From positions 1,007-65,006 of IMG/VR virus record IMGVR_UViG_3300013286_000001: DNA of 64,000 bases. One strand, 5' to 3'. Below are positions 1,429 to 2,817 of this stretch, in pieces. Below the pieces are notes generated by a model. The model saw only the letters and a list, made by a program, of their open reading frames with translations. It did not search any database and was not told the DNA's origin. The stretch's first letter is position 1, and every line of letters starts with the position of its first letter. Position numbers and translations under genes: made by a program. Source of the DNA: a virus (taxonomy: Duplodnaviria > Caudoviricetes).

Positions 1429-2268
1429 TTAAACTGCCATTTCAAACTTCATACTTGGGCCACGATCAAAAGGCTCAATTACAAAGTCTTCCGGCTCAAT
1501 AGTGTAAATTCCAATAATGCCTTCCGGCTGTTTCCAATGCCACTGCGGCAAAGGACGCGCTACAGCTGTTGAAAGAATTTCTTCAGCACCCTTGTAATGG
1601 GTGGCATAAATATGCGTGTCAGCAAAATTGCCGCGAAGCTCTCGAGGTTTTTTACCGAGGTGACGGCAGATAGCTGCCTGCAAAAAACCGTACGCAGCCA
1701 TGTCTGCTGGGCAGCCAAGAACCCAGTCAACTGACCGCATATTGAACAACAGGTCAAGGTCTTCGCCATCAATAAAGATTTGGAAGCTATAATGACACGG
1801 CGGAAGAACGGCTTTATGCTGGTCACTTGGGTCCCAAGAAGTAACCAGCAAGCGCCGAGAAGTCGGATTTGCTTCAGCTTCATGCAGCAAGCTAGTCAGC
1901 TGATCAACGCCATGGAAGTTGCGCCATTTACTGCCGTAAATTGGGCCAAGGTCAAGGTTGTCTGGTGTGCCATTTTTTTCGTTTGCCGCAAGCAAGTTGG
2001 CTTCCCACCAAAAACACTTTCGTTTTTCAAACTCAGTAATGTCTGTAAAGCCGTTGATAAAGCAGATCATTTCGCCGATTGGCCCAGCCGAGCCAAAGAC
2101 CCTGTGGGTCATAAGCGGAAAACCATCGCGCCAGTCATGGACAAGCTCAGTGCCAAAAAGAGCAGTAGTACCTACTCCAGTCCGGTCGGAACGCGGTGTG
2201 CCGTTAAGCAAAATGCGTTCCATAATAGCTAAATAACTGTGTTCGTATTTACTAAAAATTGTTTGCAT
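1429..2268 (-). CDS. thyA: thymidylate synthase family enzyme (Asp at the dUMP-specificity position)
   Basis: DRTGVGT, GPIYG, SRR, LPPCH, RSVD and HIY motifs. Confidence 0.9.
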   Translation of the reverse strand: MQTIFSKYEHSYLAIMERILLNGTPRSDRTGVGTTALFGTELVHDWRDGFPLMTHRVFGSAGPIGEMICFINGFTDITEFEKRKCFWWEANLLAANEKNGTPDNLDLGPIYGSKWRNFHGVDQLTSLLHEAEANPTSRRLLVTSWDPSDQHKAVLPPCHYSFQIFIDGEDLDLLFNMRSVDWVLGCPADMAAYGFLQAAICRHLGKKPRELRGNFADTHIYATHYKGAEEILSTAVARPLPQWHWKQPEGIIGIYTIEPEDFVIEPFDRGPSMKFEMAV

Positions 2269-2277
2269 AATTGCTCC

Positions 2278-2817
2278 TTAAATACCGTTGGCTATGTGCC
2301 ATTCGTTAGCGCTTTGGCTTGGGTTAATTTTGGCTGCGTTAAGCGCATCATCAAGAAACGGAGGAACCCAACCTGCCGGCTTAATAATGTCGTACTTGTT
2401 GCCATATTTGGAGGTTGATTCGTTACCACGCTCTTTACGCATGTTGGCGGCATGGACTTCATCCCACAAGGCCTGAAGCGGAAACATATGGTACTTCCGC
2501 ACCAAAATAGCGAAATAGCCTTTGAGAACGTCTTTAGACAAATTGATGTGGTCAGTCAAACCGCCATCTTTGTCACCAAGCAAATGTGTGGTACCAGCTG
2601 CAATATAGATGATGTCAATAACAGCGTCAGCAGTATCCCGCATTGTGCCAAAGCCGCTATCAATGGATTCGGCTAGCTCATCAAATTCCTCGTCTTGCCG
2701 CTTAATACGTAAATCAGCTTGAGCAAAATCATGAAGCGGATTAACACTGATACCAAACTTTGCATGAAAGTCAGCAACGTCGGAAACGCATTTTTCAAAG
2801 CTAAAAGTGGAGTTCAT
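2278..2817 (-). CDS. MazG-like all-alpha NTP pyrophosphohydrolase
   Basis: DVADFHAKF, EEFDEL, DAVIDIIY, EVHAANMRK and KPAGWVPP motifs. Confidence 0.8.
   Translation of the reverse strand: MNSTFSFEKCVSDVADFHAKFGISVNPLHDFAQADLRIKRQDEEFDELAESIDSGFGTMRDTADAVIDIIYIAAGTTHLLGDKDGGLTDHINLSKDVLKGYFAILVRKYHMFPLQALWDEVHAANMRKERGNESTSKYGNKYDIIKPAGWVPPFLDDALNAAKINPSQSANEWHIANGI

Follow-up and report, generated by a model that had tools for sequence, protein, structure and literature searches.

A candidate 5-methyl-dCMP synthase and its pyrophosphatase neighbour in a metagenomic phage genome

Does a phage gene of the thymidylate synthase (TS) family methylate deoxyuridine monophosphate (dUMP), as its family name implies, or deoxycytidine monophosphate (dCMP)? 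5-Methylcytosine (5mC) in phage DNA is a restriction-escape trick known from phage Xp12. The question is raised here by a TS-family gene in a 64,000-nucleotide stretch of viral DNA (Duplodnaviria; Caudoviricetes), referred to below as the window, which comprises bases 1007-65006 of the 65,006-bp IMG/VR virus record IMGVR_UViG_3300013286_000001. The encoded protein has aspartate at the position that sets pyrimidine specificity, and the gene directly upstream encodes a nucleoside triphosphate (NTP) pyrophosphatase. With a deaminase encoded in the same block, they are probably parts of a phage module in which a dCMP-methylating TS and its helpers would replace deoxycytidine triphosphate (dCTP) by 5-methyl-dCTP in the phage DNA, while the deaminase would supply thymidine nucleotides.

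An initial annotation of this locus had proposed either 5mC substitution or a dUMP-free route to thymidylate (dTMP) through 5-methyldeoxycytidine (5-methyl-dC) nucleotides. Comparative evidence supports both, and in the known Xp12-type pathway, as described in a recent preprint (10.1101/2024.12.05.627091), they are complementary halves of a single system and not alternatives. That interpretation stands. Its novelty does not, as the TS(Asp177)/PRA-PH/deaminase module and its logic are in print, and its certainty has to be lowered, as modified virion DNA is a prediction. The concept is already established and the pathway, including thymidylate via 5-methyl-dC nucleotides, has been published (Xp12 work; Yang 2021, 2024).

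Aspartate at the specificity position of a TS-fold protein

The features of the TS-family gene and of its upstream neighbour, all on the minus strand of the window, are as follows.

1429..2268 (-): TS-family gene, 279 amino acids, candidate dCMP C5-methyltransferase (5-methyl-dCMP synthase); assigned from PF00303 and solved TS chains
1702..1704 (-): GAC codon of Asp189, equivalent to Asn177 of Escherichia coli ThyA, the pyrimidine-specificity residue; established by a script check and alignments
1795..1797 (-): codon of the catalytic Cys158, equivalent to E. coli Cys146; invariant in alignments A1 and A3
1804..1806 (-): codon of Leu155, three residues before the catalytic Cys; invariant, at a signature position defined in PMC6400193
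2278..2817 (-): all-alpha NTP pyrophosphatase gene, PRA-PH/MazG-like, 179 amino acids, candidate dCTPase; assigned from phrog_671, motifs and an AlphaFold2 model

The TS-family protein matches PF00303 with 202.9 bits (E 6.9e-60, cut-off 24.3) over profile positions 2-266 of 266, and aligns end to end with solved TS chains, the best of which is 7ta9_A (E 7.3e-43). Alignment with E. coli K-12 ThyA, T4 gp42, the Xp12 and PaMx74 enzymes and the window protein places Asp189 in the Asn177 column, 31 residues past Cys158, which is the spacing of Cys146 and Asn177 in E. coli. The Asn at 177 by which a canonical dUMP-specific ThyA is recognised is therefore replaced, and the combination found, Asp177 on a TS fold, is that of the Xp12-type enzymes. 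As the initial annotation had noted, the remainder of the protein is TS-like, with the motifs GPIYG, PPCH and HIY, and it carries NMRS..CPAD; T4 gp42 also has NMRS, together with Asp at the 177 column. Every other catalytic residue of TS is retained (the equivalents of Arg21, Glu58, Trp80, Tyr94, Cys146, His147, Arg166, Asp169, His207 and Tyr209), and C158, R29, R138, R139, R178, E66, Y111, D181, H219 and Y221 are invariant in the 36 aligned sequences of A1. The C-terminal lid is complete, with an occupant at each of the final 25 E. coli positions (240-264), and all 21 of 21 clade members share its ..F.MAV end.

Asp189 is likewise invariant in the 21 aligned members of the clade, which are 47-92% identical. 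The wider survey covered 208 rows (6 references, 120 database matches listed and 82 IMG/VR loci) with Asp in 96 and Asn in 112 at position 177; Asp is present in all 26 homologues whose identity to the window protein is 43.6% or more. Given this invariance across the clade and the survey relatives, Asp189 is a selected feature and not an error or chance variant.

Published mutagenesis, as cited in PMC8670742, has turned TS into a dCMP methylase by the Asn to Asp mutation. The window enzyme looks like a natural version of these engineered enzymes (E. coli ThyA N177D and Lactobacillus casei TS N229D), with which it has in common a canonical TS scaffold and the Asn-to-Asp switch; it differs from them in belonging to a natural lineage with extra changes near the switch (Leu174 to Cys, Phe176 to Ala and Ile79 to Trp).

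The upstream pyrophosphatase and its association with Asp-type TS

The pyrophosphatase gene ends 9 bp ahead of the TS start. The protein scores 20.5 bits against Pfam PRA-PH, just below the 21.3 cut-off, and matches phrog_671 "nucleotide pyrophosphohydrolase" at E 1.5e-21; homologues of it score above the Pfam cut-off (91% relative L007, 25.8 bits; SOI901, 36.4; PaMx74, 58.1; Xp12, 55.7). EExxE and DxxxD motifs (E43, E44, E47, D64 and D68) are invariant in 44 homologues. The AlphaFold model is all-helical with a mean predicted confidence (pLDDT) of 94.8, and its top four matches in VIA were 5myd (Z 8.7, root mean square deviation 3.0, 113 residues aligned), 2yay (Z 8.4), 1w2y (Z 8.1) and 3nl9 (Z 7.6), scores that are modest for helical bundles; these are dimeric dUTPases and one putative NTP pyrophosphatase, all of the same superfamily. 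Foldseek matches were weak (best E 0.17, DR2231) and a PDB sequence search with the protein returned nothing at E <= 10. From the profile match, the invariant motifs and the fold matches, the earlier assignment to the all-alpha NTP pyrophosphatases appears sound; dCTP specificity is a candidate property.

The window protein is homologous to the genes upstream of TS in Xp12 (E 3.8e-10) and PaMx74 (E 1.4e-8), which lie in the same order. The Xp12 gene in question (L002:7323-8096, plus strand), just upstream of the dCMP methyltransferase, is annotated 'hydrolase (HAD superfamily)' and is really of the PRA-PH type (55.7 bits); the HAD label looks like an annotation error in the record.

The association of the two genes was tested at the 82 IMG/VR loci with a TS homologue, using an iterated hidden Markov model (HMM) seeded with the window, SOI901 and PaMx74 pyrophosphatases. 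A pyrophosphatase homologue was found in 54 of the 56 Asp-type loci and in none of the 26 Asn-type loci, a count in which 52 of the Asp-type loci belong to one clade with a Tyr79/Tyr176 signature, flank lengths vary by locus and distant MazG types near Asn-type genes may be missed. The independent lineages are few, namely the window clade, L012, the Tyr79/Tyr176 clade and Xp12/PaMx74. In 53 of the 54 positive Asp-type loci the pyrophosphatase lies directly beside TS; in L012 it is about 3 kb away. Asp-type loci L008 and L079 have no pyrophosphatase neighbour. An iterated deaminase HMM matched in 4 of the 82 loci, from which no conclusion is drawn.

A quick maximum-likelihood tree was constructed from 60 sequences, chosen by hand among the 208 so that the clades were represented, with the position-177 column kept in. 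The window protein falls in an all-Asp clade of nine rows (support 99), itself within an all-Asp group of 17 rows that includes SOI901 (support 86, not starred). The Xp12/PaMx74 pair and T4 gp42 lie apart from the 17-row group, on long branches whose placement is unsure. Because the Asp/Asn label changes at least seven times on the tree, at least five of these changes being forced by starred branches, the Asn-to-Asp switch looks polyphyletic and would have arisen several times within the TS family.

Some observations on other TS loci were made along the way. The large Asp-type clade with the Tyr79/Tyr176 signature has the pyrophosphatase on the downstream side of TS, fused to an N-terminal T5orf172 (GIY-YIG-like) domain, as in the following genes.

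L009:11212-12003 (+): T5orf172-fused pyrophosphatase, Tyr79/Tyr176 Asp-type clade
L026:10915-11721 (+): T5orf172-fused pyrophosphatase, same clade
L077:10835-11608 (+): T5orf172-fused pyrophosphatase, same clade

In the T4-like phage L079 (159,801-bp record), the td-annotated TS gene (9986-10939, plus strand) has Asp at the Asn177 column (GKPFD) and is sister to an Asn-type enzyme on the tree (support 99); this could represent a further independent switch or a reason for care with the residue rule. Two long TS homologues, P0018 (408 residues) and P0115 (488 residues), were considered as pyrophosphatase-TS fusions that would be evidence of coupling. They were rejected, as each is a TS domain in two stretches, split by an insert of about 130-220 residues, which could be an intein or a homing-endonuclease insertion.

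The deaminase and the proposed pathway

The third gene of the module, described as a dCMP deaminase in the initial annotation, was recovered in the family expected.

7478..7891 (-): cytidine/deoxycytidylate deaminase family gene, 137 amino acids, candidate 5-methyl-dC nucleotide deaminase; assigned from PF00383

It scores 62.8 bits against PF00383 (cut-off 25), with HAE and PCxxC zinc motifs in the translation. Its nearest solved chains (2w4l, 7fh4 and 4p9c) are human dCMP deaminase, chlorovirus dCMP/dCTP deaminase (7fh4) and cyanophage dCMP deaminase, and it is 35-37% identical to the deaminases of Xp12 and PaMx74, which are of the same family.

The gene context of an Xp12-type system is thus present in this genome: a PRA-PH gene beside TS, a deaminase, and a single TS-family gene. 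Exactly one TS-family gene was found in the complete 65,006-bp genome and ThyX was not found there; Xp12, PaMx74, SOI901 and the 91% relative G001 are alike in both respects. The Xp12 and PaMx74 modules have in common with the window Asp at the Asn177 column and a homologous PRA-PH-type pyrophosphatase immediately upstream of TS, and run in the order pyrophosphatase, TS homologue, deaminase, dihydrofolate reductase (DHFR). They differ from the window in several ways: their deaminase is adjacent, whereas that of the window is about 5 kb from TS; they include a DHFR, which the window lacks; their TS homologues have Pro147 and a divergent C-terminus, the window enzyme His147 and a canonical lid; and they are siphoviruses, the window phage being of myovirus type with a 65-kb genome.

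Metagenomic work supports the same grouping of genes. Yang et al. (2021 eLife, PMC8670742) report that Asp177 marks TS homologues on cytosine-modified contigs, where it is enriched, and that TS, PRA-PH and deaminase domains co-occur. The preprint, whose authors searched IMG/VR for contigs on which an Asp-type TS and a deaminase occur together, reports deaminases within 3 kb of TS in 104 of 149 cases on modified contigs and in 17 of 277 on unmodified ones (bioRxiv 10.1101/2024.12.05.627091). According to the same source, five of seven tested deaminase-linked Asp-type TS homologues made 5-methyldeoxycytidine (5mdC) in vivo, many partner deaminases prefer 5mC, and this 5mC-selective deaminase trait (mSCD) is polyphyletic; the preprint proposes, citing 1982 work on Xp12, that dTTP comes from deaminated 5-methyl-dCTP in such phages (10.1101/2024.12.05.627091). 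The contigs of Yang (2021, 2024) match the window in the three Pfam families plus DNA polymerase A, in the Asp-at-N177 rule and in the proposed logic, including thymidine nucleotides from 5-methyl-dC nucleotides. The window deaminase lies outside their +/-3 kb window.

The substrate, the product, the role of each enzyme and the presence of 5mC in virion DNA are predicted from these comparisons as follows. The TS-fold enzyme would methylate dCMP instead of dUMP to 5-methyl-dCMP, with methylene-tetrahydrofolate as the carbon and hydride donor. The upstream pyrophosphatase most likely hydrolyses dCTP to dCMP, which would both remove the competing nucleotide and feed the methylase. 5-Methyl-dCMP would be phosphorylated by host enzymes or by a phage enzyme not recognised here, and the resulting 5-methyl-dCTP would take the place of dCTP in phage DNA synthesis. 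Some of the 5-methyl-dC nucleotides would be turned by the deaminase into thymidine nucleotides, making a dUMP-specific TS unnecessary. Similar logic is found in T4, where gp42 is coupled to a dCTP-removing pyrophosphatase (dCTPase gp56) and a deaminase (cd), and where the TS-fold enzyme likewise has Asp at the specificity position. T4 differs in having a separate Td and the gp1 deoxynucleoside monophosphate (dNMP) kinase.

Restriction-resistant DNA in the cultured relative S144

The Salmonella phages S144 (Loughboroughvirus) and BP63 (Rosemountvirus) and the Erwinia phage SOI901 have the block in common with the window, in the order Sak4, DUF669 single-stranded DNA-binding protein (SSB), deaminase, Cas4-like exonuclease, helicase, pyrophosphatase, TS, polymerase accessory subunit and DNA polymerase A. 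In S144 the pair is located as follows.

L091 7001-8478 (+): pyrophosphatase and Asp-type TS pair of S144, the same pair as in the window

Their TS proteins have, like that of the window, Asp177, Trp79, Leu143 and the ..MAV end, and differ at positions 147 and 176, which are Tyr and His in these phages and His and Ala in the window. The proteins are 30-41% identical to those of the window, and the genomes are of 52-54 kb as against 65 kb. SOI901 encodes a DHFR and a kinase-like open reading frame (ORF) and S144 is annotated with both (PMC7432712), unlike the window.

S144 DNA was cut by two of nine restriction enzymes, SspI and PacI, whose sites are AT-only; enzymes with C-containing sites did not cut it (PMC7432712). 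The authors concluded that cytosine may be modified and report finding no gene to account for it (PMC7432712). A later paper describes Rosemountvirus and Loughboroughvirus as without an extensive set of nucleotide-modifying enzymes (PMC11946847), and no link of their TS gene to cytosine modification was found in the literature searched. The pyrophosphatase and Asp-type TS pair offers a possible explanation for the restriction resistance of S144.

Missing helper genes and a thymidylate-only role

Several observations weigh against 5mC substitution by this module. With the Xp12 enzyme the window TS shares no more than 26% identity, and it falls in a separate clade, so that the functional call rests on residues and not on orthology. 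Phe176, which contacts the p-aminobenzoate ring of the folate in E. coli TS (PMC6400193), is Ala in the window TS. Two of the seven Asp-type enzymes tested in the preprint gave no 5mdC (10.1101/2024.12.05.627091), and S144, whose cytosine modification is putative, is distant (38% TS identity). Finally, Xp12, PaMx74 and SOI901 have a DHFR, and SOI901 also a kinase-like gene, and neither is present in this genome or in the 91% relative; a methylase yields dihydrofolate, and 5-methyl-dCMP needs a kinase.

The absence of both helpers, already remarked on in the initial annotation, was borne out by profile, homologue and Walker A searches. PF00186 gave no match at E <= 1 in the window genome or in the 91% relative G001, as compared with 28.1 bits in Xp12, 15.7 bits in PaMx74 and 27.6 bits combined in SOI901. 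A search of the window in six frames for homologues of T4 gp1, of the DHFRs of Xp12 and PaMx74 and of the kinase-like and DHFR frames of SOI901 found none. Nor did the genome yield a thymidylate kinase (Tmk), a T4 gp1 homologue or another small P-loop protein; its Walker A motifs are confined to the helicase, primase and Sak4.

One further gene of the block was considered in this connection.

6372..6779 (-): DUF6378 gene, 135 amino acids, perhaps an accessory, with no firm place in the module; PF19905, 27.7 bits

The gene lies between the exonuclease and deaminase genes, and a homologue directly adjoins the Asp-type TS in the unrelated locus L012. The model has a core helical bundle with pLDDT >90 for residues 20-100, for which no informative fold match was found (VIA best Z 6.4, Foldseek best E 1.9, generic helical matches); an Atlas search returned DUF6378 clusters only. 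A T7 gp1.7-like kinase is unsupported, as hhalign against the single T7 sequence gave a probability of 0.09 and gp1.7 carries DUF3310.

These missing genes and the DUF6378 gene leave room for two unlikely outcomes, a role in thymidylate supply only or a new kinase. In the former, 5-methyl-dCMP would, without a phage kinase, be deaminated to dTMP, giving dUMP-independent thymidylate from the dCTP pool and unmodified virion DNA. Such a role would agree with the presence of the deaminase and with the want of any Tmk, T4 gp1 or SOI901 kinase-like homologue, and in the preprint T4 gp1 kinase was supplied so that 5mdC would enter E. coli DNA (10.1101/2024.12.05.627091). However, the tight coupling of a dCTP-removing pyrophosphatase to TS would suit a system that keeps dC out of DNA, the DNA of the relative S144 resists cleavage at C-containing sites (PMC7432712), host CMP/dCMP kinase may putatively accept 5-methyl-dCMP, and many ORFs of the genome are without annotation; we therefore consider a thymidylate-only role unlikely. 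Put more generally, Xp12-type chemistry without DHFR or dNMP kinase would point to a new P-loop-less 5-methyl-dCMP kinase, for which DUF6378 is a candidate, or to a mainly dUMP-independent thymidylate pathway with the DNA unmodified, to which together a low probability is given.

Methylation versus hydroxymethylation

If the substrate is dCMP, the exocyclic methylene intermediate could be either reduced or hydrated. In the latter case the enzyme would be a dCMP hydroxymethylase and the phage DNA would contain 5-hydroxymethylcytosine (5hmC) or a derivative, as in T-even phages. Park et al. (PMC6400193) propose three signature features of the dCMP hydroxymethylases: an Asp/Glu at the third position ahead of the catalytic Cys, with the role of activating the substrate water (activity is lost in D145N); a Ser/Thr two residues before the catalytic Tyr (T4 Ser94); and the lack of a C-terminal tail, which leaves the folate site open. 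The MilA paper reports the same lack of a tail (PMC5175136). In the window TS the first position is Leu155, invariant in the clade, and the second is the Pro of Pro109-Ile110-Tyr111; the rows of A1 have P, N, A, H or R there, and S/T never occurs in the clade. The tail is complete, ending in ..MAV, and clade-invariant. T4 gp42, by contrast, has Asp145, Ser94 and no C-terminal tail. In all three respects the window protein resembles TS, which makes hydride transfer, and with it methylation, the likelier reaction, and the window enzyme would more likely be a dCMP C5-methyltransferase than a 5hmC enzyme.

Position 176 requires separate consideration, as the Phe of E. coli TS gives way there to a small residue in the window protein (Ala) and in some of its clade (Asn), and T4 gp42 has Asn. 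Besides T4 gp42, 26 of the 208 rows have A, N, S or H at this position, residues that are small or polar. All 26 are Asp-type and all have Trp or Phe for Ile at 79, whereas T4 gp42 combines Asn176 with an aliphatic residue at 79. The covariation suggests a swap of bulk by which the folate pocket would be kept. Hydroxymethylation would agree with Asp at the specificity position, as in gp42, with the small residue at 176 and with the missing DHFR, as a hydroxymethylase would need none (PMC5175136; PMC6400193). Set against these are the lack of the published signature, the 176/79 covariation, the lack of a BLASTP match to gp42 at E 1e-3, and the failure to find a second TS or a dNMP kinase as in T4 or, in genome scans, any glycosyl-, carbamoyl- or other 5hmC-decorating transferase, and a hydroxymethylase is judged improbable.

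An ordinary or dual-specificity TS

The last alternative is that the enzyme makes dTMP from deaminase-supplied dUMP, with Asp tolerated. Canonical TS is overall the nearest type of protein (E. coli ThyA is 32-33% identical, and the best PDB matches are all TS), the pairing of a dCMP deaminase with TS is the classical dTMP route, and the NCBIfam model TIGR03284 is passed (156 against a cut-off of 108.35), so automatic pipelines name the gene thymidylate synthase. But the protein falls below the cut-offs of the other seven NCBIfam TS models listed (for example NF002497, 179.3 against 327, and NF002499, 152.2 against 405), and dUMP specificity is known to be set by Asn177. In addition, the occurrence of Asp across loci goes with that of the pyrophosphatase neighbour, in a survey that holds both residues in quantity, and Asp-type TS is enriched in cytosine-modified contigs (PMC8670742). 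An ordinary or dual-specificity TS is judged improbable.

Genome context

The 65,006-bp record has direct terminal repeats and a completeness estimate of 100%. PHROG and Pfam scans identified contractile-tail phage genes (tail sheath, baseplate, portal, terminase and major head protein), and the replication block extends on the minus strand from about 14 kb down to the window start. Further features near the module are listed here.

2-382 and 63235-64000 (-): family A DNA polymerase gene, which runs off both window ends and spans the ends of the terminal-repeat record
360-1340: polymerase accessory/clamp-like gene, between the polymerase and TS genes, as in S144 and BP63
1392..1415 (-): terminator-like hairpin of 10 pairs, just past the TS stop codon; found by a consensus scan only
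8806-8882 (-): single tRNA-Met (CAT), between the Sak4-like and SSB genes

When 12 kb were compared with the phage collection by megablast, no close cultured relative was found, the tRNA-Met alone being matched (1% of the query). This tRNA gene, the sole nucleotide-level match to cultured phages within the first 12 kb, has 88-89% identity to the tRNA-Met genes of Vi01-like phages of Salmonella and E. coli. At the protein level the best tblastn match of TS in the phage collection is 39.6% identical. The stretch occurs in essentially one public sequencing run, a freshwater metagenome that is probably its source and consists of contigs, in which base modification would not be visible; the other 13 rows share 0.05-0.06 of its words.

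Meaning for phage biology

Annotation pipelines will go on naming genes of this kind "thymidylate synthase". The points particular to this clade are the lack of a DHFR and of a recognisable kinase and the presence of a DUF6378 gene in the block. The residue logic bears on the restriction resistance of S144, and Rosemountvirus and Loughboroughvirus phages are used in biocontrol. Such enzymes and their deaminase partners are also of interest as methylome-sequencing tools (10.1101/2024.12.05.627091). If the proposed module is correct, one more phage lineage, of 62-67 kb myovirus-type genomes seen so far only in metagenomes, would swap cytosine for 5-methylcytosine at the level of the nucleotide pool.

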